A DNA stretch of 64,000 bases from Pirellulales bacterium (lineage in GTDB: Bacteria > Planctomycetota > Planctomycetia > Pirellulales > PALSA-1355), in contig CAVTBU010000005.1 in assembly GCA_963733035.1 (NCBI GenBank), forward strand, positions 1,760,001 to 1,824,000, in the 5' to 3' direction. Both the position numbers and the translations under genes were made by a program. Under the pieces are notes generated by a model. It saw nothing but the letters and a program-made list of their open reading frames with translations. It searched no databases and had not been told where the DNA came from. Shown piece by piece: positions 15,385 through 32,441 of this stretch; positions within the stretch are counted from its first letter, which is position 1, and the number at the start of each line of letters is the position of its first letter.

Positions 15385-17217
<1,833 letters not shown>

Positions 17218-17533
17218 GTGCGTTTCCAATCGTGCTGCTGGATGGCCGGGCCCAGTTCGTTGCCGGCTGACCACGGCAAAGCGACAATCCGGCGTGTTCC
17301 GACTCCCGCTGGTCAAAAATAGCGTTTTTAAAACGGTGGGATACTCCCCGGCAGGTGCTATGTACGAAGAAATCTCCTGAGCTGCCGTCGCCAGGGAGTC
17401 CTGTGCGACCACGCACCAGCCAGAGCGATACCGCGCACCAATTTCATCTGGTTTCGCTCGAATCGCAAGATCATCACACGGTTTTCCGGTCATCGCCAGC
17501 CCACGCGGTCTCGCCTGCCAAAAGGCCTTCGGC

Positions 17534-17550
17534 TCGGCACATGATCTGCA
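17534..17550 (+). promoter_or_regulatory. Sigma54 -24/-12 promoter for the His-rich protein/hydrogenase unit
   Basis: TCGGCACATGATCTGCA: GG-N10-GC with GGCAC, 65 bp upstream of ATG 17615. Confidence 0.6.
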
Positions 17551-17614
17551 TAGCTGGCATGGCAGCGTTTTATCACGTTTCGCCGTCGGCCGTACACGAG
17601 TGGAGAAGTTCAAC

Positions 17615-18010
17615 ATGACCAGCTCAACGCATGCCACAATGCACCAGAACCATCGGCAATGGAAAAGTGACAACGACCAATGGCGGTGCGACCTGGCCGC
17701 TTGGCAAGATGAATTGCGGCAGGCGACGGGGCAGCTTTCGGAGGTTGAAGAGGCATTGAAGAAGCAAGCAGCGAAGCTGCAGACTCACGCCTCGTCGATT
17801 CGCTTGCGCGAACAGGATCTGTTGGCACACGAACACGCACTGGCAGCCTGCGAGCAGGGAGAGCCCACGGTAGATCTCATCAAATTGGCGAAGGCGCACG
17901 AGGACGAAGAGTCCAAACATGCCTCCCAGCGGGACGCGCATGAGAAGATCAAGCGCCATCATCACGCGATCATGGCGCACCTGGCGGCGTTGCATAAGCT
18001 CGTCTCCTAG
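17615..18010 (+). CDS. His-rich coiled-coil hypothetical protein
   Basis: GGAG RBS; 131 aa with 14 His; predicted all-helical; first gene upstream of the hydrogenase genes. Confidence 0.7.
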   Translation: MTSSTHATMHQNHRQWKSDNDQWRCDLAAWQDELRQATGQLSEVEEALKKQAAKLQTHASSIRLREQDLLAHEHALAACEQGEPTVDLIKLAKAHEDEESKHASQRDAHEKIKRHHHAIMAHLAALHKLVS

Positions 18011-18178
18011 CCAGACTAAGGGATGGTCATCATGCTGGTTGGTCCCCCTTGCGGGCCTAACGGCGCGTCAGCCGGAGCGCGAAATCCGCGGCCGCTACTT
18101 GCCACGTGTTCGATCCGTGCGAGAATCAATCGCTGTTATGCGCTATCCGCCTGAAAATCGCGCACGGAAATCGCTCTC

Positions 18179-18670
18179 GTGGACACGCCGGTCTTGATAC
18201 AAGTGTTGCAGCAGTTGCGCTTTTCCGAGACGCTGCCCGACCACGTCTTGGAACGCGTCGCGGCGGCCGCCAGTCTGCGCGGGTTTCCGGCCGATACGAT
18301 CTTATTTCGCGAAGGCGGACAAAACGATCAGTTGATGGTTGTCTCCGTCGGTAGCGTGGCGCTCGATATGAACGTGCCGGGGCGGGGCGAGGTGCGGATC
18401 ATGTCGCTGGGGCCCGGCAACGTCGTGGCCTGGTCGGCCCTGCTGGGCGGAGGTCGCATGACCGCTTCGGCCGTGGCTCTTGAAGACACGCAAGTCGTAC
18501 AGATTCCCGCGGCCGACCTATTGGCCATTTGCGACACGGACGCTCTGTTCGGCTATCACTTGATGCGGCGTGTCGCCACGGCACTGGCCGAGCGGCTAGT
18601 CGCCACGCGATTGCAATTGCTCGACCTATTTGCCGACACGGCACCGATCGTTCCTCAGGGCCCCGACTGA
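18179..18670 (+). CDS. Stand-alone cyclic-nucleotide-binding (Crp-like, no HTH) domain protein
   Basis: ILFREGG, GSVAL, LGPGNVVAWSALL, RMTASAVALED, LAERLVATRLQLLDL. Confidence 0.85.
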   Translation: MDTPVLIQVLQQLRFSETLPDHVLERVAAAASLRGFPADTILFREGGQNDQLMVVSVGSVALDMNVPGRGEVRIMSLGPGNVVAWSALLGGGRMTASAVALEDTQVVQIPAADLLAICDTDALFGYHLMRRVATALAERLVATRLQLLDLFADTAPIVPQGPD

Positions 18671-18694
18671 CATTCGACGCAGGAAGGTTGCGGC

Positions 18695-19828
18695 ATGACG
18701 ACGACCGCGGGTGAACCAGTCGGCAAGGATGGCCAGACCATGCTACTCGCCAAGGCGCACTTTCAGAAACTCCTGGATTTGCTGTGGAGCCAGGCGTATC
18801 GAGTCGTTGGCCCGACGGTGTCTCAAGAGGCGATAGTTTACGACGAGGTTCGCAGCATCGATGATCTGCCGCGGGGGTGGACGGACGAGCAAAGCGGCGG
18901 GACTTATCGACTCAAGCGGCGCGACGATGACGCCTGGTTCGGCTTCGTCGTGGGGCCGCACTCCTGGAAACGCTATTTATTTCCGCCTCAGGCAACGGTT
19001 TCGCAGGCCGAGCGTACGGCGGACGGCTGGCAGCTGCGCGACGTGGTCGACGAGGAACCGCCCTACGCGTTCCTTGGCGTGCGCGCGTGTGAACTTGCGG
19101 CCATGGCCGTGCAGGATCGAACCTTCTTAAACGATCAATACTGCGATCCAATCTATCGCCGCCGTCGGGAGCGAGCATTGATCATCGCGGTGAATTGTAC
19201 GCAGGCCGCGTCGACCTGCTTCTGCACTTCGATGAACACCGGGCCGCGCTGCACGCGAGAATACGACTTGGCGTTGACCGAGCTAGTGGATCACTTTACC
19301 GTCGAGATCGGCAGCGAGCGGGGTCGGGAAATTGCCTCGCAACTCCCGACCACCGTGGCCGATTCCGGACACCTCGATCAGGCCGAAACCGCGCGCCAGC
19401 AGGCCGTTGATCAAATCACGAAAACGCTGGACACCACCGACATCCGAGATTTGCTGCTGGGGAACCTCGGTCACCCGCGTTGGACCGAAGTCGCGACCCG
19501 CTGTTTGTCGTGCACGAATTGCACGATGGTCTGTCCGACCTGTTTTTGCAGCTCGGTTAAGGACGTCAGCGATCTGGCCGGCGAGCACGTCGAGCGCGTG
19601 CGGCAGTGGGATTCTTGTTTCAATTGGGACTTCAGTTACATGAACGGCGGTGTGGTACGCAACCAGATCCGCTCGCGATATCGTCAGTGGCTGACGCACA
19701 AGTTGGCTTCTTGGATCGACCAGTTCGACGTCTCCGGCTGCGTGGGATGCGGACGGTGTATCACCTGGTGTCCGGTGGCGATCGACTTGACCGAGGAAGT
19801 GGCGGCGATCCGGGAGACTGCCCTGTGA
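18695..19828 (+). CDS. hydB: Group 3b (sulf)hydrogenase beta subunit, 4Fe-4S dicluster
   Basis: GPHSWKRYLFP, GVRACELAA, CFCTSM, CLSCTNCTMVCPTCFC, RYRQWLTHK, GCVGCGRCITWCPVAID. Confidence 0.9.
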   Translation: MTTTAGEPVGKDGQTMLLAKAHFQKLLDLLWSQAYRVVGPTVSQEAIVYDEVRSIDDLPRGWTDEQSGGTYRLKRRDDDAWFGFVVGPHSWKRYLFPPQATVSQAERTADGWQLRDVVDEEPPYAFLGVRACELAAMAVQDRTFLNDQYCDPIYRRRRERALIIAVNCTQAASTCFCTSMNTGPRCTREYDLALTELVDHFTVEIGSERGREIASQLPTTVADSGHLDQAETARQQAVDQITKTLDTTDIRDLLLGNLGHPRWTEVATRCLSCTNCTMVCPTCFCSSVKDVSDLAGEHVERVRQWDSCFNWDFSYMNGGVVRNQIRSRYRQWLTHKLASWIDQFDVSGCVGCGRCITWCPVAIDLTEEVAAIRETAL

Positions 19829-20685
19829 GTCGTGACCGCAGCTCTGCGATTAGCGAGAATCCCTGGTTGGCACAAAGCGTCGAGATCGCCGACATCACGC
19901 CGGAAATGCCCGGCGTGGCCACCTATCACCTGCGATTTCGCGATCCGGCCCTGCACGCCAGCTATGCGTTTCGGCCGGGACAATTCAACATGCTCTATTT
20001 GCCCGGGGCTGGCGAAATTGCCATCAGCCTGAGTGCGGGCAGCCAGCAGCACGGCACTTGGGACCATACGATTCGCGTGGCTGGTAACGTCACTCGAACG
20101 TTGGCCAAGATGAAAGTGGGTGCCGATTTTGGGCTTCGCGGTCCGTACGGTTCGAGTTGGCCGTTGGACGAATTCCACAATGCGAACGTCATTGTTGGCG
20201 CCGGCGGTATTGGCCTGGCGCCGCTGCGGCCTGCCATTGAGGCGCTGCTGCAAGAGAAGCACAAGTTTGGCGAGCGGATGTTGCTTTATGGAGCGCGCAC
20301 GCCCGATACCTTGCTCTATACCCGGCAGTACGAGGACTGGTCGGATCGCGGCTTGAGTTTGCAAACGACCGTCGACCGTGCACAGCCCGGCTGGTTAGGT
20401 CACGTGGGCGTCGTGCCGCTGCTGTTGGACCGCTTGCGGCCGTTTACTCCGGCCAATTCTGTGTTGTTGCTCTGCGGGCCAGAAGTCATGATGCGCTACT
20501 GCGTTCGCAGCGCATTGGCGCGGGGTATGCGGAAGGACCAGATTTGGTTATCGCTCGAGCGCAACATGCAATGCGCCGTGGGGCTTTGCGGCCACTGCCA
20601 GCTTGGACCGGAATTCATCTGCAAGGACGGTCCGATCTTTCGCTATGACCGCGTCGAGCCGTTTCTCGAAGTGGAGACACTGTAA
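19825..20685 (+). CDS. hydG: Group 3b hydrogenase gamma subunit (FAD/NAD(P)-binding, 2Fe-2S)
   Basis: FRPGQFNML, RGPYG, AGGIGLAPLR, CGPEVMM, ERNMQCAVGLCGHCQ, ICKDGP; GTG start overlaps the upstream stop. Confidence 0.9.
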   Translation: MSRDRSSAISENPWLAQSVEIADITPEMPGVATYHLRFRDPALHASYAFRPGQFNMLYLPGAGEIAISLSAGSQQHGTWDHTIRVAGNVTRTLAKMKVGADFGLRGPYGSSWPLDEFHNANVIVGAGGIGLAPLRPAIEALLQEKHKFGERMLLYGARTPDTLLYTRQYEDWSDRGLSLQTTVDRAQPGWLGHVGVVPLLLDRLRPFTPANSVLLLCGPEVMMRYCVRSALARGMRKDQIWLSLERNMQCAVGLCGHCQLGPEFICKDGPIFRYDRVEPFLEVETL

Positions 20686-21467
20686 TGGGGATTCCCCGGC
20701 TGGCCGTGTTCAAATTCGCCTCTTGCGACGGCTGCCAGCTCTCGCTGCTGGGGTTGGAAGACGAACTCCTGACGCTGGCCGGACGCATGGACGTTGTGTA
20801 CTTTCTGGAGGCCTCCAGCCGCGCCGAACCGGGACCGTATGACGTTGCCTTGGTTGAAGGTTCGATCACGACCGCCGAAGACGCCGCGCGCATTCGCCAG
20901 ATTCGTCGCGATGCGAAGTTTCTGGTGACGATCGGTGCTTGCGCCACGGCAGGCGGTATACAGGCCCTGCGCAATTGGGCCGACTCTCGGGAATTCTTGC
21001 AAGCCGTGTACGCTTCGCCACAGTACATCGAAACGCTCGCCACCTCGACGCCCATTTCGCAGCATGTGCCGGTGGATTTTGAACTGCGCGGCTGCCCGAT
21101 CAACAAACATCAGTTGCTGGAGGTCCTGACCGCGCTGCTTGCCGGTCGGCGGCCACGGACACCCGTGCATAGCGTTTGCCTGGAGTGCAAGCGGCGCGGA
21201 ACCGTCTGTGTCATGGTCGCTCAAGGCATGGTTTGCCTCGGGCCGATCACGCATGACGGTTGTGGAGCAATTTGCCCCAGCTACGACCGCGGTTGCTATG
21301 GCTGTTTTGGTCCCGCGCAGCAGCCCAACCCGAAAAGCCTTACCGCGCAGTTCCAGCAAAACGGCGTCTCGCGAGAATCGCTTGTTCGCAGCCTGCGCGG
21401 GAGTTTTAACGGGTATGCGCCGGAATTTCGTGCCGAAGGCGATCGGCTCGCCGAAGGCCAGGACTAG
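20685..21467 (+). CDS. hydD: Group 3b hydrogenase small (delta) subunit
   Basis: KFASCDGCQL, VEGSITT, GACATAGG, LRGCP, CLGPIT..GCGAICP...GCYGCFGP. Confidence 0.92.
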   Translation: MGIPRLAVFKFASCDGCQLSLLGLEDELLTLAGRMDVVYFLEASSRAEPGPYDVALVEGSITTAEDAARIRQIRRDAKFLVTIGACATAGGIQALRNWADSREFLQAVYASPQYIETLATSTPISQHVPVDFELRGCPINKHQLLEVLTALLAGRRPRTPVHSVCLECKRRGTVCVMVAQGMVCLGPITHDGCGAICPSYDRGCYGCFGPAQQPNPKSLTAQFQQNGVSRESLVRSLRGSFNGYAPEFRAEGDRLAEGQD

Positions 21468-21478
21468 GTGCTCACGAC

Positions 21479-22777
21479 ATGACTTCCGAGCGTACTATTC
21501 GTGTCGCGGCGATGACCCGGGTCGAGGGGGAGGGATCGCTGCGGATTCGATTGAGCGATGGACAAATCGACCAGGTGCAACTCAGAATCTTCGAGCCCCC
21601 GCGGCTGTTCGAAGCGTTCCTGCGGGGTCGAGCCATCGAGGATGTGCCGGATATCACGGCCCGCATCTGCGGCATCTGCCCGGTCGCCTATCAGATGAGT
21701 TCCGTACACGCCCTGGAACAAGCGCTAGGGGTGCAAACGCCGCCCGAATTGCGCAGCTTGCGGCGGTTGCTGTATTGCGGCGAATGGATTGAAAGCCATT
21801 CGCTGCATGTGCACCTGCTGCACGCGCCGGACTTCTTGGGTTACGACAGCGTGCTGGAAATGGCCAAGGACTTTCCCGATGAAGTGAATCGCGGGCTGCG
21901 CCTCAAAAAGCACGGCAACCAACTGCTCGACGTGCTGGGTGGGCGGTCGGTGCATCCGGTGAATGTTGCGGTCGGCGGATTCCACCGTCTGCCGCGTCGC
22001 GACGAACTGGCGCCGCTGGTCGATGATTTCGCCTGGGGGCTCGAGGCCGCAATCGAAGCCACACGCTGGGTCGCGGGTTTCGATTTTCCGTCGTTCGAGC
22101 GTCCCTATGGCTTCGTGGCGCTCTCGCATCCGCACGAATACGCGATGTCCGAGGGGCAGATTCGCACGAGCGATGGGCTCGCCTTCGACGCTGCGCAGTT
22201 CGCGCAGCATTTCCGCGAACAGCAGGTACCGCATTCCACGGCCCTGCAGGCCGTGCGGGTCGACACGGGCGGGACCTATTTTCTGGGGCCACTGGCTCGC
22301 GTCAATCTCAACCGTGGGCAACTGCTGCCCCGGGCACGCAAGCTGGCCGACGAGATTGGTTTGGAAGATCCTTGTCGCAATCCGTTCAAAAGCATCATCG
22401 CGCGGAGTATCGAGGTCGTCCAAGCGTATGAAGAAGCGCTGATGCTCTTGCGGAGCTATCGACCGTCGCGCCGAGCCCGAGTCGCGTATACATACCGCGC
22501 CGGCGCCGGCGCCGCGGCCACCGAAGCGCCCCGCGGAATGCTATATCACCGCTACGAGGTGGACGCGGAAGGCACGATCGTGGCCGCCACGATCGTGCCT
22601 CCCACTTCGCAAAACCAGGGTCAGATCGAGGACGATTTGCGTCACTACCTGCCGGCCCAACTTGCGCAGCCCGACGAACAGGTGGCGGCGGCCTGCGAAC
22701 GCTTGGTGCGAAGTTACGATCCGTGCATCAGTTGCTCGACGCACTTCCTGAAGGTTGCCATCGAGAGGAACGAATGA
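21479..22777 (+). CDS. hydA: Group 3b [NiFe]-hydrogenase large (alpha) subunit
   Basis: TRVEGEG; L1 motif RICGICPVAY; EAPRG; PPTSQNQ; L2 motif RSYDPCISCSTH followed by a cleavable tail. Confidence 0.95.
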   Translation: MTSERTIRVAAMTRVEGEGSLRIRLSDGQIDQVQLRIFEPPRLFEAFLRGRAIEDVPDITARICGICPVAYQMSSVHALEQALGVQTPPELRSLRRLLYCGEWIESHSLHVHLLHAPDFLGYDSVLEMAKDFPDEVNRGLRLKKHGNQLLDVLGGRSVHPVNVAVGGFHRLPRRDELAPLVDDFAWGLEAAIEATRWVAGFDFPSFERPYGFVALSHPHEYAMSEGQIRTSDGLAFDAAQFAQHFREQQVPHSTALQAVRVDTGGTYFLGPLARVNLNRGQLLPRARKLADEIGLEDPCRNPFKSIIARSIEVVQAYEEALMLLRSYRPSRRARVAYTYRAGAGAAATEAPRGMLYHRYEVDAEGTIVAATIVPPTSQNQGQIEDDLRHYLPAQLAQPDEQVAAACERLVRSYDPCISCSTHFLKVAIERNE

Positions 22778-23223
22778 GCGGCGACGCACTGTTCGTCGGC
22801 ATCGGCAGCCCGCACGGCGACGACTGCGTCGGCTGGCGAGTGGCGCAGCGGATTAGCGAGTTGGGCATTAAACGCCTAGTCGTCCGCCGGGCACAATCGC
22901 CAGCCGACGTGCTCGACTGGCTCGACGACGTCGAGGCGCTGGACGTCTGCGACGCGGTTTTCAGCGAGTCGCCCCCCGGCACGCTCCATTGTTGGCCGTG
23001 GCCCAGCGCCGCGATCGAGAGCGCCCTGTTTTGCGGCACGCATGACCTGTCACTCCCCGCGGGGCTCGCCTTGGCCGAACGACTCGGTCGCTTGCCGCGG
23101 CAGGTCCGTATTTGGGGGGTTGCCATCAACGAGGCCAATCAGACAGCGCCCGTCTCACCGGACGTTGCCGCGGCGACTCCAGCCATCGTGAGCGAAATAG
23201 CAACCGCTCTTGGACGCCAGTAA
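22774..23223 (+). CDS. Hydrogenase maturation endopeptidase
   Basis: VGIGSPHGDDCVG, DAV, GTHDLSL; overlaps the large-subunit stop. Confidence 0.85.
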   Translation: MSGDALFVGIGSPHGDDCVGWRVAQRISELGIKRLVVRRAQSPADVLDWLDDVEALDVCDAVFSESPPGTLHCWPWPSAAIESALFCGTHDLSLPAGLALAERLGRLPRQVRIWGVAINEANQTAPVSPDVAAATPAIVSEIATALGRQ

Positions 23224-23242
23224 CCAGGCTTATTAACCAGGC

Positions 23243-25663
23243 TCATTTGTTCCCCAGCGACTGTTCCAGTTCCACGATCCTGGCCATCGTCTTGATCGCC
23301 GCGTCCGGATTCAGCGAGATGCTGTCGATTCCCTCCCGTACCAGGAATTCGGCGAATTCCGGATAGTCGCTTGGCGCCTGGCCGCAGATGCCGATCTTCC
23401 GACCCGCCTTATGCGCCGCGGCGATCACGCTCGAAATCAAACGCTTCACCGCCAGGTTGCGTTCGTCGAACACGTGGGCGACGATTTCGGAATCGCGGTC
23501 CACCCCCAAGGTGAGTTGTGTCAGGTCGTTCGAGCCGATCGAAAAGCCGTCGAAAATCTCGGCAAACTCCTCGGCGCACACCACGTTGCTCGGAATCTCG
23601 CACATCACGTAGACTTCCAGCCCGTCTTTGCCCCTTACGAGCCCGTGCTGGGCCATGATGTCGAGCACCTGCTGTCCCTCCTTCACCGTGCGGCAGAAGG
23701 GGACCATGATTTTCATATTTACCAGGCCCATCGTTTCGCGCACTTTGCGCAGGGCCTGACATTCCAGACCAAAAGCATCGCGGAACCTCGGGTCGTAGTA
23801 GCGCAATGCGCCGCGAAAGCCAATCATCGGGTTTTCTTCCACCGGTTCGAATTGCCGGCCACCGACCAGATTGGCATATTCGTTGGTCTTGAAATCGCTC
23901 AGCCGCACGATCACATCCTTGGGATGGAACGCGGCCGCCAGCATGGCCACACCCTCGGCGAGCCGGTCGACGAAGAACTGCGGCTTGTCGGTATATCCGA
24001 CCGTCATGGCGTCGATTTGGGCCCTGACCGACTTGTCTTCAAGACGGTCGTACTCCAGCAATGCCGACGGATGAATCGCAATCGAGTTGGCGATGATGAA
24101 TTCGATCCGCGCCAGCCCTACTCCGTCGTTCGGCAGCATCGACAATCCAAACGCCTCATCGGGCTTTGCCACGTTGAGCATGATCTTGGTGCGCGGGCGG
24201 CCGAGATTGCTCAGTTGCACCTTGTCGACGGCAAAGTCGAGCTGCCCGTCATAGACGAAGCCCGTTTCCCCCTCGGCGCATGAGACGGTCACCGCCTGGC
24301 CGCTGCGTAGCACGTGCGTGCCGTTTTGCGTGCCCACCACGGCCGGCAAGCCGAGCTCGCGACTGACGATGGCCGCATGGCACGTGCGTCCGCCGCGATT
24401 GGTGACGATGGCCGCGGCCTTTTTCATGACCGGCTCCCAGTCCGGATCCGTCTTGTCGGTGACCAGCACCTCGCCTTGCTGAAAGGATCCCAGGTTCTGG
24501 GCGTCGGCAATCACCCGCGCGCGGCCCGTGCCGATCTTTTCACCCACGCTCTGGCCCGTGACCAAAACCGCGCCGCGAGTCTTCAGACGATACGTCTCCA
24601 AAACGTCACGCTTGCGAAGGGCCTGCACTGTTTCAGGCCGCGCCTGCACGATGAAGATCTCGCCGGTTACACCGTCCTTGGCCCATTCGATATCCATCGG
24701 GCAGTAGCGGCCGTGCAACTGGCTATAGTGGTCCTCGATCTGGCAGCCCCAGCGGGCCAGTTTCAAAACGTCGTCGTCGTCGAGCGACAGGCGGTTTCGA
24801 TCTCCCTCGGGTACGGGCACGGTTTTGACCATCTTGGTGCCGCCGTGTGCGAGGATCAGTTTGAATTCCTTGCTGCCGAGCTTTTTGTGCAGAAGGGGGC
24901 GAAAACCCGATTTAAGCGTGGGCTTGAAGACAACGAATTCGTCTGGATTGACCGAGCCCTGCACGATCGTCTCACCGAGCCCGTAGGACGACGCGATCAG
25001 CACGGCATCGCGAAAGCCCGATTCCGTGTCGATCGTGAACATGATGCCGGAGCTTGCCACGTCCGAGCGCACCATCAATTGCACGCCGACCGACAGGCCG
25101 ACCTGGAAATGGTCGAAACCCTTGTCGGCGCGATAGGAGATCGCGCGGTCGGTAAACAGCGAGGCAAAACAACGACGGCAAGTTTCCAGCAGGGCCGCAC
25201 TCCCGCGCACATTAAGATATGTTTCCTGTTGGCCGGCGAAGCTGGCATCGGGCAGGTCCTCGGCCGTGGCGCTGCTCCTCACGGCAACCGCCACATCGCT
25301 GCCATTTTCTTGCGACAACTGGGCGTAGGCTTCGAGAATCGCCTCCTGCAGATCGGCAGGGAAGGGGGTCTCGACCATGGCATGCCGAACTTTGGCGGCG
25401 CGCACACGCAGGTCGTCGACATTCTGCGTGTCGAGCCCCTCGAGAATTTGCCGGATCCGCCGGTCGAGCCCCTGTTGTGCGAGAAACCGGCGGTAGGCTT
25501 CGGCCGTAACGGCAAATCCGTTGGGAACCCGCACGCCCGCGTCGGCGAGTTGGCGGACCATTTCTCCAAGTGAAGCATTCTTGCCACCCACTGACGGAAT
25601 GTCAGCCAGCGTGAGGTCGGCAAACCAGCGGACGAGCGTGACTTTGGTTTCGGCAACGGACAT
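23243..25663 (-). CDS. ppsA: Phosphoenolpyruvate synthase
   Basis: VGGKNASLGEM, AVRSSATAEDLPDASFAGQQETYLNV, TNRGGRTCHAAIVSRE, EENPMIGFRGA, GFSIGSNDLTQL. Confidence 0.96.
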   Translation of the reverse strand: MSVAETKVTLVRWFADLTLADIPSVGGKNASLGEMVRQLADAGVRVPNGFAVTAEAYRRFLAQQGLDRRIRQILEGLDTQNVDDLRVRAAKVRHAMVETPFPADLQEAILEAYAQLSQENGSDVAVAVRSSATAEDLPDASFAGQQETYLNVRGSAALLETCRRCFASLFTDRAISYRADKGFDHFQVGLSVGVQLMVRSDVASSGIMFTIDTESGFRDAVLIASSYGLGETIVQGSVNPDEFVVFKPTLKSGFRPLLHKKLGSKEFKLILAHGGTKMVKTVPVPEGDRNRLSLDDDDVLKLARWGCQIEDHYSQLHGRYCPMDIEWAKDGVTGEIFIVQARPETVQALRKRDVLETYRLKTRGAVLVTGQSVGEKIGTGRARVIADAQNLGSFQQGEVLVTDKTDPDWEPVMKKAAAIVTNRGGRTCHAAIVSRELGLPAVVGTQNGTHVLRSGQAVTVSCAEGETGFVYDGQLDFAVDKVQLSNLGRPRTKIMLNVAKPDEAFGLSMLPNDGVGLARIEFIIANSIAIHPSALLEYDRLEDKSVRAQIDAMTVGYTDKPQFFVDRLAEGVAMLAAAFHPKDVIVRLSDFKTNEYANLVGGRQFEPVEENPMIGFRGALRYYDPRFRDAFGLECQALRKVRETMGLVNMKIMVPFCRTVKEGQQVLDIMAQHGLVRGKDGLEVYVMCEIPSNVVCAEEFAEIFDGFSIGSNDLTQLTLGVDRDSEIVAHVFDERNLAVKRLISSVIAAAHKAGRKIGICGQAPSDYPEFAEFLVREGIDSISLNPDAAIKTMARIVELEQSLGNK

Positions 25664-25708: not shown

Positions 25709-28396
25709 CTAGGAAAGTCGTTTGCTGGCCCTCAGCAGCGTCGGATCGTCGGCCGGTTCCAGGTCGAAACCGAAATGCCGAAACACATGCAACATGCCGG
25801 CATTGCTGCGGCCGGTAATACCGTAAACCTCTTGCACCTTTTGACGGTCCGCATGCTTGAGACAATATGCGGTGAGCAGCCGCCCGAGCCCCTTGCGCTG
25901 CCAGTGCTCGCCCACCAGCACGGCAAATTCGGCGCGTCGGGTGGCCGTCTCATTCACGAGCCGCGCCACGCCAAGCAGTTGTTTCTTGCCGTCGATGTCG
26001 GCTTCGGCCACGGCCGTCAATTCGCGGTCGTAGTCGACAAAGCAAAAGCGGATCGCCGCCTCGTGCGTTTCCGTCTTGAACATGTAGCGAAAGCGGTTCC
26101 AGAGCGTTTCGCTCGAACAACTGGCCAGCAACTGGTGCCACAGCGGTTCGTCCTCGGGCTTAATCGGGCGCAGCGTCACGGGCGTCCCGTCCTTGAGTTC
26201 ACCAGGTTCGGCGAGTTCGGCCGGATAGGGACGAATTGCCAAATGGGCATACGGTTGCGCTGCAGGATGTTCGACGGCCGCGCGATCGACGATGATCCGC
26301 GCGTCCAACGCAATTAATTGCTTGTCTCGCACCAGCACCGGATTGGCATCGAGTTCGGAGATCTCGGGAAAGTCGGACAGCAGCCGCGAGACACGCAGCA
26401 AGGATTCGACCAGGCAATCGACGTCGGCCACGGGTTTACGGCCGCGGTAGCCAACCAATAGTGGCCAGGCACGGAGCGATTGAAGCATATGCAGCGCGAG
26501 CCGTTCGTTCAGGGGCGGCAGTCCGAGCGCCCGATCCTGAAACAGCTCGGCCGCAATTCCCCCGACGCCGACCATCAACACCGGCCCAAACACGGGGTCC
26601 TTTTTGGCGCCGATAATCAGTTCGAGGCCTCCCGGGAGGCTGATCATCGGCTGCACGGAGATCCCTTGAATCTCGGCGTCAGGTCGAGCCTGAATCACAT
26701 TCGCGGTCATCTCGATATAGGCGGTTCGCACCTGGTCTTCATTGACCAGATTCAACGCCACGCCGCCCACGTCGGTCTTATGCGTGATTTGGGGCGAAAC
26801 GATTTTCAGCGCGACCGGAAAACCAATGGAACGCGCCAGCGACGCGGCTTCGTCGACCGAATGCCCCTCGCGAACGCCAGCCACGGCAATCCCATAAGCA
26901 CTGAGCAGCGACTTGGCTTCGGACTCGAACAGAGTATCGCGGCCGCGCTGAAACATGCCCTGCAGCCGCGCCCGAATCGCGGCCGGTTCTTCGGCCAACC
27001 CCAACGGCATCTCGCGCGGCGTCTCGTACAGCAGGTCGAGGTTCCGCGCATAGCGAACCAGGTGCATGAATGCCGACACTGCATCGCTGGGACTCTCCGC
27101 CGTCGGTAAACCCGCCTGGTTGAGGATGTCGACTCCTTCGCGGACCATCCCGCCTCCCATCCAGTTGGCCAGGATGGGCTTGTGCGTGTGGCGCGACGCC
27201 TTGACGACGCTGCGGGCCGTCTCGCTGGGATCGGTCATCGCTTGTGGAGTCAAGATGGCGAGCACCGCGTCGACGTTCGTATCGTTCGCCACCACTTCCA
27301 GGGCTCGTGAAAATCGTTCCGGCGTCGCGTCGCCCAGCACGTCGACCGGGTTCGCGTGCGACCACGCCGCCGGCAGGAATTGGTTCAACTGCTCTAGCGT
27401 GGCTTTGTCGAGCTCGGCCAGCTTGCCGTGGCGTGCCAGCAATGCGTCGCAGGCCATCACGCCCGGCCCACCGGCATTCGACACGATGCCCAATCGGTCA
27501 CCTTGCACGCGCGGCCCATGGGCCAAGAGTTGTGCGCACTCAAACAATTCGTCGACTTCAAAGACACGCACGATGCCCGCTCGCTCGAAGGCCGCCTCAT
27601 ACACGCTGTCGACGCCGGCCATCGCGCCCGTGTGAGATGCGGCGGCCTGCGCCGATTCGGCGAAGCGTCCGGCCTTGTAAGCAATGACCGGTTTCCGCCG
27701 GGCACAGGCTCGCGCTGCCGACATGAACGCCCGCGCGTTGTCGATCGATTCGATATACAGGATGATCGAATCGGTAGACGAGTCGTCGGCCAGGTAGTCG
27801 AGCAGATCGGCAATGCCCACGTCGATCGCATTGCCAATTGAAAGAAAATGCGAGAACCCAACGGACTGCTCGCCAGCCCAATCGAGCATGGCCGTGCAGA
27901 GGGCACCCGACTGCGAAAGGAACGCTAGCCGCCCCACGGCCGGCATCGAAGCCGCGAAGCTGGCATTGAGATGGTGCCCCGGCACAATCGCTCCAAGACA
28001 ATTCGGGCCGATCACGCGCATTTCGGGAAACCGCTCGAGCTCTGCTTGCAATGCCGCTTCGACCGAGCGCCCTGCTTCGCCGGTTTCACGAAAGCCGGCC
28101 GTGAGAATGATCAGTCCTCCCACTCCGGCCTCGCCACATTGGTGAACCAATTCCGGCACGGTCGCCGCCGGCGTGCAGAGGATCGCCAGGTCGACGGGCT
28201 CGGGCAGTGAGGCCACATCAGGATAAGCTCGAAGTCCTTGGACCTCCGAGCGCCGTGGATTAACGGGAAAGATTGGCCCTTCAAATCCGCCGCGGACCAG
28301 ATTTTCGAAGGTCACCGCGCCAACCTTGCCCGGCTGGCTGCTGGCTCCGATCACAGCCACGCTACGAGGGGCCAGGATTCTGCGGAGGTTTCCCAT
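25709..28396 (-). CDS. ADP-forming acyl-CoA synthetase (alpha+beta fused) with C-terminal GNAT domain (Pat/ACD family)
   Basis: PRSVAVIGAS, IGPNCLG, SQSGA, ASHTGA, SNAGGPG, NPVD, THKTDVGGV, ELDANP, then LRPIKPED...CFVDYDRE...WQRKGLG GNAT. Confidence 0.92.
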   Translation of the reverse strand: MGNLRRILAPRSVAVIGASSQPGKVGAVTFENLVRGGFEGPIFPVNPRRSEVQGLRAYPDVASLPEPVDLAILCTPAATVPELVHQCGEAGVGGLIILTAGFRETGEAGRSVEAALQAELERFPEMRVIGPNCLGAIVPGHHLNASFAASMPAVGRLAFLSQSGALCTAMLDWAGEQSVGFSHFLSIGNAIDVGIADLLDYLADDSSTDSIILYIESIDNARAFMSAARACARRKPVIAYKAGRFAESAQAAASHTGAMAGVDSVYEAAFERAGIVRVFEVDELFECAQLLAHGPRVQGDRLGIVSNAGGPGVMACDALLARHGKLAELDKATLEQLNQFLPAAWSHANPVDVLGDATPERFSRALEVVANDTNVDAVLAILTPQAMTDPSETARSVVKASRHTHKPILANWMGGGMVREGVDILNQAGLPTAESPSDAVSAFMHLVRYARNLDLLYETPREMPLGLAEEPAAIRARLQGMFQRGRDTLFESEAKSLLSAYGIAVAGVREGHSVDEAASLARSIGFPVALKIVSPQITHKTDVGGVALNLVNEDQVRTAYIEMTANVIQARPDAEIQGISVQPMISLPGGLELIIGAKKDPVFGPVLMVGVGGIAAELFQDRALGLPPLNERLALHMLQSLRAWPLLVGYRGRKPVADVDCLVESLLRVSRLLSDFPEISELDANPVLVRDKQLIALDARIIVDRAAVEHPAAQPYAHLAIRPYPAELAEPGELKDGTPVTLRPIKPEDEPLWHQLLASCSSETLWNRFRYMFKTETHEAAIRFCFVDYDRELTAVAEADIDGKKQLLGVARLVNETATRRAEFAVLVGEHWQRKGLGRLLTAYCLKHADRQKVQEVYGITGRSNAGMLHVFRHFGFDLEPADDPTLLRASKRLS

Positions 28397-28513
28397 GACG
28401 AAGGCGTTCCCTCTTTTCGAATGCGACAGGATCGCACGCACTGGGCGAATCGGCACACTCGTTTGTCTCGTTTGCGTGCCTGCAATGCTTTTTTCTCACG
28501 CATCACGGGTCTT

Positions 28514-28530
28514 TGCAACGCACGTGCCGC
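28514..28530 (-). promoter_or_regulatory. Sigma54 promoter for the acyl-CoA synthetase/ppsA operon
   Basis: Minus strand GCGGCACGTGCGTTGCA = GGCACG-N4-TTGCA, near consensus. Confidence 0.7.
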
Positions 28531-28706
28531 TGACGTGGTTTGGAGACAAGGTGCGCCGCAAGAAGACGGACTCGCTTCAGCGACCGACGATTTCGAACGG
28601 CCAAAACGGCGCGCCGAAAGTTGCACCATGGCACGCTTAGCAATCTTTGCAGATTCGATGAACTGTTCGCGGTCCCGATTTCTTGTTTGTGAATCGCTGG
28701 GCGCAT

Positions 28707-28730
28707 AAAAAAAACCGCCTTCTTGGCGGT
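28707..28730 (-). terminator. Intrinsic terminator of the orphan transcription unit
   Basis: Minus strand ACCGCC-AAGAA-GGCGGT followed by a run of 7 further T. Confidence 0.85.
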
Positions 28731-28969
28731 CCTCCCTCGTTCCTTGAGCCTCGTGGGCTGTGAAGCGCTTCTTACCCGATCGCAGGATGTGAACTGCCCC
28801 GACAGCGCTCACCACTTATTTTGCGAACCTCACTCTCGGCCGCGAGGCTCCCTTACTGCTTTTGCCTCACACATGATGTCGCACCTCCTTGTTAAACCAT
28901 TCATTTTTGGCCTTCCGGACGACACATTCCGATCGGGCCTTTCGCTGACTTCTCCACTCTCCTCTCTCC
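28707..28969 (-). ncRNA. Candidate sigma54-dependent GGA-rich small RNA (~260 nt), possibly also encoding a 14-24 aa peptide
   Basis: Bounded by a sigma54 motif (28980-28995) and a terminator; insulated from hsp20 by another hairpin; 10 GGA triplets; no long ORF. Confidence 0.5.
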
Positions 28970-28979
28970 ACCATTACTA

Positions 28980-28995
28980 CGCAAGTAATGGGCCA
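28980..28995 (-). promoter_or_regulatory. Sigma54 promoter overlapped by a perfect palindrome
   Basis: Minus strand TGGCCCATTACTTGCG (GG-N10-GC, TTGC); inverted repeat CCATTACT-N5-AGTAATGG at 28971-28991. Confidence 0.65.
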
Positions 28996-29018
28996 TTGGT
29001 TCGCCAAAAACGGTAGGG

Positions 29019-29074
29019 AAAAAACACCGGCCAGGGCGGATACATGGGCTACATCCCGCCCTGGCCATGTTTTT
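29019..29074 (-). terminator. Terminator downstream of hsp20 (possibly bidirectional)
   Basis: GGCCAGGGCGG / CCGCCCTGGCC stem flanked by AAAAAACA and TGTTTTT. Confidence 0.65.
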
Positions 29075-29083
29075 GGCGGCGGA

Positions 29084-29554
29084 TCAACTCTTGACCGTAA
29101 TCTTGCGGGCCTTGGCTTCTTCGGTCTTTGGCAGTTTAACGGTCAGCGTGCCGTTTTTGTACTGAGCGTCCACGGCCTCATCGTTCACTGGACAAGGAAG
29201 CGTCACCGTCCGCGAGAACGTTCCGCTACGCCGCTCAACGCGGTGGTAGGTTTTTCCCCGCTCCTCACGTTCTTCCTTGCGTTCGCCGCTAATGGTCAAC
29301 AGGTTGCCATTGACTTGAATCTCGAAGTCTTTGGCCTCCATGCCTGGGGAATCCATGCAAACCTCAATCGCACCATCGGTTTCGGCCACGTCCAGCGAAG
29401 GGGAAATCCGGTCGAGCGGCCACTCGGCATCGCTGCCGAAGGTCCGCGAAATCAGGTCTTGCATCTCTTCTCGCAGATGCTCGAGCGGGCGAGGTCCAAA
29501 CCAATTGCGCACACTCTTCGGTTCCTTCTTGCTCTTGGTCAACGTCGTACTCAT
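29084..29554 (-). CDS. Hsp20/alpha-crystallin small heat-shock protein
   Basis: PSLDVAET, PGM, LTISGERK, HRVERRSGTFSRTVTLP, AQYKNGTLTVKLPK; AAGGAG RBS before ATG 29554. Confidence 0.93.
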   Translation of the reverse strand: MSTTLTKSKKEPKSVRNWFGPRPLEHLREEMQDLISRTFGSDAEWPLDRISPSLDVAETDGAIEVCMDSPGMEAKDFEIQVNGNLLTISGERKEEREERGKTYHRVERRSGTFSRTVTLPCPVNDEAVDAQYKNGTLTVKLPKTEEAKARKITVKS

Positions 29555-29635
29555 CGCATCGCTCCTTTGCAATTGCTGGGTCCATGAATTGCGGCGCCCG
29601 GTTGGGTGATGTCTGAACTGCCACCCTGAAAGTTG

Positions 29636-29652
29636 AGCAAACAACATGCCGA
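29636..29652 (-). promoter_or_regulatory. Sigma54 promoter for hsp20
   Basis: Minus strand TCGGCATGTTGTTTGCT (GG-N10-GC, TTGCT), about 80 bp upstream of the start. Confidence 0.65.
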
Positions 29653-29921
29653 TTGCCGCCTGGGATGCCGTTACGGCCGCTACGATCATTGCAAGAAAGC
29701 GGACACGTTAATGCCTTGCAATGCGATGACAAACTGGCGTCACCAACCAAGTGTGCGGAATCGACCGCCCGTGCGCTTGTTTGGCACCCGCTTCTGCAAA
29801 CCGATATCGCGAAATCGTACGTAGCGGACGGCAAATTAACGCTAGTGATCACATTTTTGAGCGCGGCGGAATGTTTTGGTGCGCGACTTGCGTCACACCC
29901 GCCCTCAGGAGGGTTAACACC

Positions 29922-30389
29922 ATGACAACCTGGATTTTGGTGGCGGATGCCGGTCGAGCCAAGCTGTATTCGGCCGAGTTGCGTGCAGACAAGTGGTCTC
30001 TAATCAAGGAATTCGAACACCCCGAAGGACGGCAGACATCCAGCGAGATCAGTCCGTCGTCGCCGCCGGGTAGTTCCGAGCAAAGTCAGGGGCATGGCGC
30101 TCGCCATACGGCTTATGAGCCCCGTACGACACCCAAGAAGGCCGAAACGGATCGGTTTGCCCAGCATTTGGCAGATCACCTCGAAAAGGCGACTGCAAGC
30201 CGCGAATTCGACGCCTTGGTGCTCGTGGCCCCGCCGCGCTTCCTTGGCATGTTGCGCGGGGCTTTGGGTCAACAGGCCGCCAAGCAACTGCGCACGTCGG
30301 TTGATAAAGACCTGAGCATGTTTAGCGTCGAGGCGCTGCGCGAACACCTTACGGATGTGGTGTTTCCATCCACGTCGGCGGCTGGATGA
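29922..30389 (+). CDS. Host_attach-family (aeRF1-related) protein
   Basis: AGGAGG RBS; TWILVADAGRAKL, FAQHLADHL, LVLVAPPRFLGMLR, VDKDL. Confidence 0.85.
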   Translation: MTTWILVADAGRAKLYSAELRADKWSLIKEFEHPEGRQTSSEISPSSPPGSSEQSQGHGARHTAYEPRTTPKKAETDRFAQHLADHLEKATASREFDALVLVAPPRFLGMLRGALGQQAAKQLRTSVDKDLSMFSVEALREHLTDVVFPSTSAAG

Positions 30390-30434
30390 GCAGAAGCGCC
30401 TCATCGAAGCGCGAGGGAATGAAGGGCCCGGGCC

Positions 30435-32441
30435 ATGGTCACGTTTGCCGAGCAACGCCGCCAATTGGTCGAAATGCAAATCAAACGGCGGGGCGTTACA
30501 GACCCGGCGGTGCTCGCGGCCGTCGAGGCGGTTCCGCGGGAAGCATTTCTGCCACCCGAGTTGGCTGAGTTTGCTTATCTCGATCGAGCATTGCCGATCG
30601 AGAAAGGGCAAACCATTTCGCAGCCCTACATCGTGGCCCTGATGGCCGAAGCGTTGGAACTAAAACCGACGGACCGAGTACTGGAAATTGGCACCGGCAG
30701 CGGATACGCGGCGGCCGTGCTGGCAAAGATTGCCAGTGAGGTGTTTACAATCGAGCGGCACGGAGAACTGGCCGAACAGGCCGCGCGGCGGCTGCACGAA
30801 GAGAATTTTCAGAACGTGCACGTGCTCCATGCCGACGGCACGCTGGGATGGCCCGACGAGGCGCCCTTCGATGCGATCGTGGTTGCCGCCGGCGGACCGG
30901 AGGTGCCCAAACCGCTTTTGGAACAATTGGCCATTGGCGGGCGGCTGGTCATTCCCGTGGGTGCCGAACGGACGATGCAAAGTCTGATTCGGGTAGTCAG
31001 AGTCGGCGAAGACAACTACCAGCGTGAGGACCTCGGCGACGTTCGGTTCGTGCCGCTGGTCGGCGCCGGTGGTTGGGAGGAGGAGTCCGAAGCGGAACGG
31101 ATCGTCGCGCCCAAACCGCGGCGTAGCCCCGACAAAGTCGTCGAAGAGCTAATTCGTGAAGCGGCCGAGCCGCTGCATCAGATCGAAGGTGCCGACCTGG
31201 GTTCGATCGTCGAACGGGCCGAGAATAGCCGGCTGGTGCTGATCGGCGAAGCCACGCACGGCACGTCCGAGTTTTATCGAATGCGGGCCGAAATCACGAA
31301 GCAATTGATCACCCGTCGAGGTTTTCGCTTCGTGGCGATCGAAGCCGACTGGCCCGACGCCGCGCGGATCGACCAGTATGTGCGACGCCTACCGCCGGCC
31401 AACGGTCATCGCTGGGAAGCTTTTGCCCGTTTTCCCACCTGGATGTGGCGCAACCGCGAAGTGTGGGACTTTGTCGAGTGGCTTCGCGAGCACAATTCGT
31501 CCATTGAAAACCCCGCGGAGCGCGTCGCGTTCTACGGCCTCGATTTGTACAGCGTGTTCACCTCCATTCGGGCCGTGCTCGACTATCTCGACCGGGTCGA
31601 CCCGGACGCGGCGCGCATCGCCCGCTTGCGCTACGGCTGCCTGACGCCGTGGGAAGGCGATCCGGCCTTGTACGGCCGCATGGCGGTTGGCGGACGCTAT
31701 CGCGTCTGCGAAGACGAGGCCGTCGCCACGCTCACCGATTTGTTCAAACAACGCCTGAAGTACACCGAATACGACGGCGCGCGGTTTCTCGACGCGATGC
31801 AAAATGCCCGGCTGGTTGCTAATGCCGAGCGCTACTATCGGGTTATGTACTACGGTTCGAACGAATCCTGGAATCATCGCGATCAGCACATGTTCGACAC
31901 ATTGGAGTTGCTGTTGGGCTTTCACGGCACGGAGTCCAAGGCCGTGGTCTGGGAGCACAACTCGCATTTGGGTGACGCGGCTGCCACGGAAATGGGAGCC
32001 AGCGGGCAGACAAACGTCGGGCATTTGTGCCGAAGCCGATTTGGCAACGATGCCTACCTGATTGGGCAGGGCACCGACCATGGAACCGTGGCGGCGGCGT
32101 CCAATTGGGACGAGCCTGTCGAGTTTATGCAAGTTCGCGCGGGGCATCCCGGGAGTGTCGAGCAGTTGTTTCACGACTCACGAGTCGAGGCATTCTCGTT
32201 GCATCTTCGTGAACCTCGTCGACCGGCCGTCCGCGTCGAGATGGCCCAATCGCGACTCGAGCGCGCGATCGGCGTGATCTACCGTCCGCGCTCGGAGCTG
32301 GCGAGTCATTATTTTCATGCCTTGCTTTCGCATCAGTTCGACGAATTCATTTGGTTCGATCGCACCAAGGCAGTCACGCCCACTAGCAACGACGATGCGC
32401 GCCGTCTGCCGCCGGGCCATCCGTTCGCGCTCGATCGTTAA
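30435..32441 (+). CDS. pcm: Protein-L-isoaspartate O-methyltransferase fused to an erythromycin-esterase-family domain
   Basis: VPREAF, GQTISQPYIVA, VLEIGTGSGY, VRFVPLVG; then LIGEATHGTSEFY, EADWPDA, RFPTWMWRN, WNHRDQHM, WEHNSHLGDA, LERAIGVIYRP. Confidence 0.92.
   Translation: MVTFAEQRRQLVEMQIKRRGVTDPAVLAAVEAVPREAFLPPELAEFAYLDRALPIEKGQTISQPYIVALMAEALELKPTDRVLEIGTGSGYAAAVLAKIASEVFTIERHGELAEQAARRLHEENFQNVHVLHADGTLGWPDEAPFDAIVVAAGGPEVPKPLLEQLAIGGRLVIPVGAERTMQSLIRVVRVGEDNYQREDLGDVRFVPLVGAGGWEEESEAERIVAPKPRRSPDKVVEELIREAAEPLHQIEGADLGSIVERAENSRLVLIGEATHGTSEFYRMRAEITKQLITRRGFRFVAIEADWPDAARIDQYVRRLPPANGHRWEAFARFPTWMWRNREVWDFVEWLREHNSSIENPAERVAFYGLDLYSVFTSIRAVLDYLDRVDPDAARIARLRYGCLTPWEGDPALYGRMAVGGRYRVCEDEAVATLTDLFKQRLKYTEYDGARFLDAMQNARLVANAERYYRVMYYGSNESWNHRDQHMFDTLELLLGFHGTESKAVVWEHNSHLGDAAATEMGASGQTNVGHLCRSRFGNDAYLIGQGTDHGTVAAASNWDEPVEFMQVRAGHPGSVEQLFHDSRVEAFSLHLREPRRPAVRVEMAQSRLERAIGVIYRPRSELASHYFHALLSHQFDEFIWFDRTKAVTPTSNDDARRLPPGHPFALDR

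Follow-up and report, generated by a model that had tools for sequence, protein, structure and literature searches.

The window analysed here is a stretch of 64,000 nucleotides from a Pirellulales genome. The gap between two of its minus-strand genes, hsp20 and a gene for an ADP-forming acyl-CoA synthetase/GNAT protein, holds a predicted RNA gene. The features of the locus and of the surrounding island are collected in Table 1.

Table 1. Genes and sequence features in and around the RNA gene, by position in the window
Feature	Position	Strand	Description
Island of the window, two parts	15773-25663 and 29751-32441		Includes ATP synthase alpha/beta-like ORFs (Pfam)
cNMP-binding regulator	18179-18670
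[NiFe] hydrogenase-like set	18695-22777		Four genes
PEP synthase	23243-25663
ADP-forming acyl-CoA synthetase/GNAT	25709-28456	minus	915 residues (Pfam)
Separate, better sigma-54-like site	28513-28528	minus	CGGCACGTGCGTTGCA; ahead of the acyl-CoA synthetase/GNAT gene
Intrinsic terminator	28707-28730	minus	CCGCC (28729-28725), loop AAGAA, GGCGG (28719-28715), T8 (28714-28707)
RNA unit (predicted)	~28969-28707	minus	~260 nt; ends fit the conserved promoter and terminator
Structured core	28741-28854	minus	114 nt, 3' part of the RNA; covariance models R1 and R2
P1, closing helix of the core	28850-28843 with 28753-28746	minus	GAGCCTCG with CGAGGCTC
Possible 14-codon ORF	28830-28874	minus	MCEAKAVREPRGRE; stop TGA 28832-28830; runs into P1 and P2
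Shine-Dalgarno look-alike box	28882-28890	minus	AAGGAGGTG, 9 nt, perfect; 33 nt before the core
5' arm of the RNA	28855-28969	minus	Purine-rich, begins GGAGAGAGG; hairpins variable
Sigma-54-like string	28980-28995	minus	TGGCCCATTACTTGCG; TGGCCC-N5-TTGCG, correct spacing
Conserved promoter	28978-29002	minus	-35 GAACC (29002-28998), 15-nt spacer, -10 GCGTA (28982-28978)
hsp20 terminator hairpin	29019-29074	minus	11-bp GC-rich stem GGCCAGGGCGG/CCGCCCTGGCC, then GGTGTTTTTT
hsp20	29084-29689	minus	Pfam HSP20
baeRF12/Host_attach protein	29751-30389
PCMT-erythromycin-esterase fusion	30435-32441		Also beside the RNA in G032

Boundaries and composition of the RNA unit

The original prediction, made from the letters of the window, had described an orphan, non-coding unit of about 260 nt, closed by an intrinsic terminator and shielded from hsp20 read-through by a separate hairpin. 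This outline is borne out: none of the five ORFs overlapping the gap matched a Pfam family, and the ends that had been proposed, about 28969 and 28707, agree with the promoter and terminator conserved among homologous loci. The start is predicted to lie 7-9 nt past the CGTA of the promoter. The hsp20-side hairpin can be read directly at its predicted place, immediately 3' of the hsp20 stop codon; it lies outside the RNA and sets its upstream limit. The RNA's own terminator is likewise present where it had been placed, being read from the sequence and also seen in the fold, and our own scan of 30 homologous loci shows the core of 27 to be followed, no more than 90 nt on, by a T-tailed, terminator-like hairpin. 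A consensus terminator scan of the window reported neither of these two minus-strand terminators, we suspect because extension of the stem consumes the T run of the first and because the tail of the second begins 4 nt past its stem.

Taken as a whole, the 276-nt stretch folds better than all of 200 shuffled sequences (z = -3.03). The 5' arm has an unusual composition, with a purine content of 69%, and the homologue alignment shows GGAGGGAG, GGAAGGAG and AGAGGG to be conserved words in the 5' part of the RNA. At the other end, a (T/C)GCGC word was seen by eye 0-3 nt past the terminator T run in about 19 of the 30 loci (at 28700-28706 in the window, and for example in L028, L031 and L163). It may be the actual boundary of a unit that is conserved and movable.

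A structured core supported by covariation

The 3' part of the RNA folds into a core closed by P1, inside which lie the helices P1b and P2, the variable hairpin P3 and a short P4, with the conserved junction words UACG, CAUCC and GGGGAA left unpaired. The closing helix (GAGCCUCG...CGAGGCUC) and the inner helices were already apparent from an alignment derived from blastn matches. Covariation was checked on the homologues and is strong. Across 29 sequences of the R2 alignment, which was fitted to the covariance model and so favours the structure, 94.9% of cells form standard pairs, compared with 25-41% when the 3' partners are slid out of register. Both-side, compensatory changes occur in 20 of 30 pairs (93 cells), and none of 500 shuffles reached any of five measures; a smaller set of nine sequences already had both-side changes in 10 of the 30 pairs. 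Near-duplicate rows in the alignment are L050/L060, of which L050 was left out, L162/L164 and L174/L176. The hairpin P3 illustrates the pattern well, its sequence being fully altered between loci while it stays paired (GGUGAAG/CUUCAC, GCGAAG/CUUCGC, CAAGGG/CCUUUG). Judged from these comparisons, the gap almost certainly holds a real, conserved structured RNA.

A pseudoknot between the AGGA of the upstream box and the CAUCCU of the core was considered and rejected, as L171, L168 and L180 have an altered CAUCCU and no corresponding change in the box. Two observations concern other pairings of the same strands. The 5' end of the RNA, GGA(G/A)GGAGC(C), repeats the P1 5' strand (GGGAGCC) in 8 of 26 loci, among them the window (28960-28969), L028, L161, L163 and L170, a copy that could vie with P1 for the GGCUC strand. 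In the unconstrained fold of the window, the 5' strands of P1 and P2 are paired to each other instead.

The original prediction had recognised no known RNA family, and a search of the whole 64 kb against Rfam 15 agrees, with no match at the gathering score. Relaxing the limit to E values of up to 10 gave four weak, unrelated matches, none of them usable; the best was to a piece of group II intron (17.7 bits against a cut-off of 35 bits), and an isrD match covers the terminator only. The finding is new as an RNA family.

A conserved promoter upstream of the RNA

At the same place ahead of the RNA, 26 of the 30 homologous loci carry [GA]AAC-N16-18-CGTA, for which we estimate a chance rate of about 0.015 per locus. 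The conserved blocks are GAAC(C/T/A), 15 nt and (G/A/T)CGTA, followed 7-9 nt later by a conserved, purine-rich start, and the sequence of the spacer is free to vary. CGT at -10 and a spacer of about 16-17 nt with variable sequence are the rule for group IV (ECF) promoters. A G with AAC is given as the -35 hallmark of group IV sigma promoters in passages of PMC1540707.

The original prediction had instead assigned the unit to sigma-54. The string on which this was based has the letters that had been read at 28995-28980, with the GG (-24) and GC (-12) correctly spaced for the consensus TGGCAC-N5-TTGCW, and a search for rpoN found one copy in the genome. The string is, however, built from the variable spacer and the GCG of the -10 block of the conserved promoter. 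Its elements (GGC-N8-TGC) occur at the promoter place in the window alone among the 30 loci, and GGCMC-N5-TTGC matches the window three times, where shuffled sequences average 2.14 ± 1.52 and 33 of 100 shuffles give three or more. Drive by sigma-54 is probably wrong, and the promoter is probably of the ECF type. A separate sigma-54-like site, CGGCAC-GTGCG-TTGCA, lies outside the RNA, downstream of its terminator; from there it is about 115 nt to the ATG of the synthetase gene, and it matches the sigma-54 consensus more closely. The acyl-CoA synthetase/GNAT gene may have a sigma-54 promoter of its own.

Group IV sigma factors have regulons that share their promoter motif and are often autoregulated. 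The conserved motif of the RNA defines no regulon in its own genome. In a scan of the genome with a position weight matrix, which includes the 5' end of the RNA and so favours its own site, that site scored 40.7 bits and the next 23.2 bits, and GAACC-N15-GCGTA gave ten matches, about the number expected by chance and mostly within long ORFs. Since, in addition, no cognate sigma gene was found beside the RNA at any locus, the sigma factor is one that we infer from the form of the promoter.

Neighbouring genes and the possibility of a cis-acting leader

Flanks of about 1.5 kb per side were surveyed with Pfam, covering 11 of 20 order-level loci and 106 of 208 ORFs. The neighbours of the RNA vary between loci and are mostly stress or energy genes. 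They include hsp20 (the window, L162 and L164), a Pat-like acyl-CoA synthetase (the window, G006 and L165), PEP synthase (G032), MgtC/DUF4010 (G009, G020 and L166), a P-type ATPase (L032 and L165) and a zinc-dependent alcohol dehydrogenase (Zn-ADH; L050/L060), with Usp, SOD, cysteine desulfurase and AdoMet synthetase among the others. The impression is of a free-standing RNA gene in an island of stress or low-energy genes, rather than of a leader belonging to one gene family.

A leader is one alternative to weigh. The core would then be a riboswitch-like sensor of a ligand or protein, and the terminator the expression platform for a downstream stress gene. Like an aptamer, the core has multiple helices meeting at junctions, and its unpaired bases there are strongly conserved; a terminator follows the core at nearly every locus, and in most annotated loci a same-strand gene begins about 100-300 nt downstream. 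These downstream genes, however, belong to no consistent family, being for a Pat-like synthetase, PEP synthase, MgtC, Zn-ADH, cysteine desulfurase, a P-type ATPase or a lipase, and in L166 the downstream neighbour is convergent. The RNA is also mostly present in one copy per genome, and about 115 nt with a conserved box of their own precede the core. From P1 to the terminator the spacer differs between loci, both in length and in sequence, and has no overlap with P1; the terminator differs in sequence too, and a conserved antiterminator was not seen in this region. In the window, moreover, the separate sigma-54-like site falls after the terminator and ahead of the next gene. We regard a cis-acting leader as unlikely on this evidence.

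A Shine-Dalgarno-like box and a small open reading frame

In 24 of the 30 loci, a AAGGAGGUG-like box (GGAG/GAGG) lies 30-36 nt ahead of the core, and the single carrier beyond the order also has it. The box is complementary to the 3' end of 16S rRNA. A start codon follows 3-13 nt past the box in 17 loci, and an ORF of 13-15 codons ending at core positions +19 to +23 is found in 10. The remaining 13 loci have no start codon at this distance past a box, three of them having no box at all. What is conserved is therefore the box rather than the peptide.

With an ORF at ten loci, the box could be no more than a ribosome-binding site. The RNA would then be the mRNA of a tiny protein or a dual-function RNA, in which AAGGAGGUG serves a peptide of about 14 residues (MC-x5-REPRGRE) whose translation, reaching into P1 and P2, remodels the core. 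Several details are in keeping with this. The Shine-Dalgarno match is perfect, and close relatives of the window have a start codon 7-10 nt past it, varying between ATG, GTG and TTG and with TGT or TGC as the second codon; from there a frame of 14 codons, as in the window itself, leads into P1 and P2 and closes at a TGA that they share. A variable stretch of fixed length, 15 nt, preserves the frame in six of eight close relatives, the ORFs of 13-15 codons share their end, and L032, which loses the usual TGA through covariation in P2, has a new TGA one codon earlier. Against this, besides the loci that have no start codon, the ORF is broken in the close relatives L028 (by a frameshift) and L033 (where three codons are left), the middle of the peptide shows no conservation, and its conserved C-terminal residues are those encoded by P1, a helix that covaries as RNA. 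A translated peptide as the purpose of the box is accordingly doubtful, a shade more so than a leader.

Distribution across the order

The RNA is an undescribed family of the order Pirellulales, found in many of its members. In a blastn search of 61 related genomes, five from other genera had a match, which was limited to the 3' half (about 28699-28856), and none of three genomes of the same genus had one. With the covariance models the core was found in 8 of 33 genomes of the family, one copy each (R1), and in 21 of 151 sampled genomes of the order, representing 11 of 30 families, as well as in one of 150 further genomes of the phylum (R2). R2 finds a single place in the genome of the window. 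One genome, G093, has two copies on separate contigs (L162 and L180) with differing 5' arms; the other carriers have one.

A strict sequence pattern run on genome contigs matched seven MAGs, all of them already among the family-search matches. A loose pattern, GAGCCTCG-N78-106-CCACGAGGCTC, was also tried on metagenomes and set aside: it matched at least 120 stretches, and of 80 that were fetched the covariance model accepted two, near-identical to each other, the others being chance matches of a 19-base palindromic pattern.

In the same-genus genomes G003 and G002 (L182 and L183), a baeRF12-like gene lies ahead of the homologue of the synthetase gene and the RNA is absent there, the best covariance-model score being 6.8 bits. 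The locus has therefore been rearranged even within the genus. The DNA identity of these synthetase homologues is just 68-69%.

Such a patchy spread, together with the differing neighbours, would also suit an RNA that is part of a dedicated ribonucleoprotein, serving as the partner of a protein rather than as a regulator of mRNAs and carried on a unit that is easily gained and lost. The complex, conserved core agrees with this, as does the block conserved from the -35 box to the GCGC past the terminator, which was recognised by eye in about 19 of 30 loci. The flanks that were surveyed contain no recurring protein gene, however, and no repeats or integrase were seen apart from one IS110 transposase beside L169. 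We consider a ribonucleoprotein of this kind improbable.

GGA motifs and CsrA

The original prediction had counted ten GGA triplets, clustered at both ends of the RNA. All ten were recovered on recomputation, with first G at 28969, 28962, 28955, 28930, 28916, 28888, 28851, 28743, 28735 and 28732. The enrichment that had been read into them does not hold: shuffles preserving dinucleotides contain 8.6 on average (z = 0.6), and 26 homologues have a mean of 7.7 (range 3-14) where 7.6 are expected. In unconstrained folds, which do not reproduce the consensus core, the mean probability of being unpaired is slightly higher at the GGAs (0.47) than overall (0.38), which gives a location in loops no clear support. 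Two of the ten lie inside the terminator stem, with probabilities of 0.04 and 0.01. In place of the repeated hairpins of a CsrB/RsmZ-type build, the RNA has one complex junction. As GGA is not enriched, the RNA is unlike a high-capacity sponge.

A few GGA sites are conserved, namely the 5' GGAGG, the AAGGAGG box and AAGGGAGCC. Three or four such sites, at the 5' end, in the box and at the base of P1, could in principle bind one or two CsrA dimers. A search for csrA in the genome gave 14 CsrA-domain matches above the Pfam cut-off (for example G000:C8:224484-224639 and C5:401551-401706), and all of the 151 Pirellulales genomes searched have CsrA, with 2-17 matches each, a great expansion. Its presence can therefore not discriminate between models. 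Hfq had no match in the genome of the window, which is 92% complete.

Known CsrA sponges carry GGA more densely than the approximately one per 34 nt found here. The idea of a sponge is unsupported, and the combined model, in which a sigma-54 promoter drives a GGA-rich RNA that titrates CsrA like CsrB, RsmY and RsmZ, is very improbable: the correctly spaced TGGCCC-N5-TTGC of the window, the rpoN gene, the many CsrA copies beside a missing Hfq match, the few conserved GGA sites and a GGA read by eye in a hairpin loop in L028 and L029 have to be set against a promoter match at chance level and a different promoter at nearly all loci, GGA numbers and pairing close to expectation, a single junction, the absence of any Rfam match to the CsrB, CsrC and Rsm families, and an RNA present in a fraction of the genomes that all have CsrA.

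Interpretation

We favour a stand-alone small RNA gene of about 260 nt that would be transcribed by an alternative sigma factor of the group IV (ECF) type and, for this reason, presumably respond to a stress signal; that there is a transcript, where it begins and ends and what induces it are predictions. The RNA would act in trans. Its working surface may be the exposed purine-rich arm with the Shine-Dalgarno look-alike, which would bind and hold back a reader of such mRNA sites, either a CsrA paralogue or the 30S subunit, and the folded core could provide stability or dock a protein or ligand. That the RNA is an independent unit acting in trans is slightly favoured. The whole reading, a trans-acting small RNA of a stress island under an ECF-type sigma factor, is evenly balanced, and the titration of a Shine-Dalgarno/GGA reader by the RNA is a tentative suggestion, with a chance only a little above that of a leader. 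Several points weigh against the favoured reading. Cores of many helices with conserved bases at the junctions are found more typically in riboswitch aptamers and ribonucleoprotein RNAs than in base-pairing small RNAs, the promoter motif picks out no regulon, and no cognate sigma gene was found next to the RNA at the loci.

The RNA may, with low probability, be a stress-induced decoy of translation-initiation sites. The conserved, exposed and perfect anti-anti-Shine-Dalgarno box AAGGAGGUG would then capture CsrA paralogues or free 30S subunits, and the sensor-like core would gate this capture by binding a ligand or protein. Such a role would fit a box that stands at a fixed distance from the core and is kept even where there is no ORF. 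If true, the decoy would be the first case of a regulatory RNA circuit to be described for Planctomycetes, and as a sponge it would follow a different plan from CsrB or RsmZ. Full-text literature searches listed no paper with a title or abstract on regulatory small RNAs or CsrA partners in this phylum.

The RNA offers a handle on post-transcriptional control in the phylum, on what one of its numerous ECF-type sigma factors regulates and on the purpose of its CsrA expansion. With about 30 representatives and a consensus structure, it is ready as an Rfam candidate.

Comparison with known systems

CsrB, CsrC and RsmX/Y/Z resemble the Pirellulales RNA in being purine-rich, with several GGA words, and in having an abundance of CsrA in the host. 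The AAGGAGG box also resembles CsrA sites on mRNAs. Unlike these, the Pirellulales RNA is not enriched in GGA, has no repeated GGA-loop hairpins and matches none of their families. The promoters of CsrB/Rsm-type RNAs depend on GacA/UvrY and are of a different type.

Dual-function small RNAs with a tiny ORF are known from SgrS/SgrT, RNAIII/hld and SR1/SR1P. A strong Shine-Dalgarno sequence and a short ORF within a structured RNA are shared with part of the Pirellulales family, whereas many of its members have no ORF, and RNA pairing accounts for the residues that are conserved.

Orphan riboswitch candidates and large non-coding RNA motifs, such as raiA and the ykkC subtypes at the time when they had no known ligand, have in common with the Pirellulales RNA a lineage-restricted, covarying junction with conserved unpaired bases and then a terminator. 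In contrast to such candidates, it is tied to no single downstream gene family, has a conserved promoter of its own and a 5' arm that is long and likewise conserved, and is absent from Rfam 15.

Among the stress-induced small RNAs that depend on ECF or alternative sigma factors are the sigma-E-dependent MicA and RybB of E. coli and the sigma-T-dependent GsrN of Caulobacter. The Pirellulales RNA differs from these in being much longer, with a covarying core of four helices and no likeness in sequence or structure by Rfam, and in having a host genome in which no Hfq was found. Like them, it has its own promoter of alternative-sigma type (-35 AAC, -10 CGT) and an intrinsic terminator, lies among stress genes and is mostly present as a single copy.
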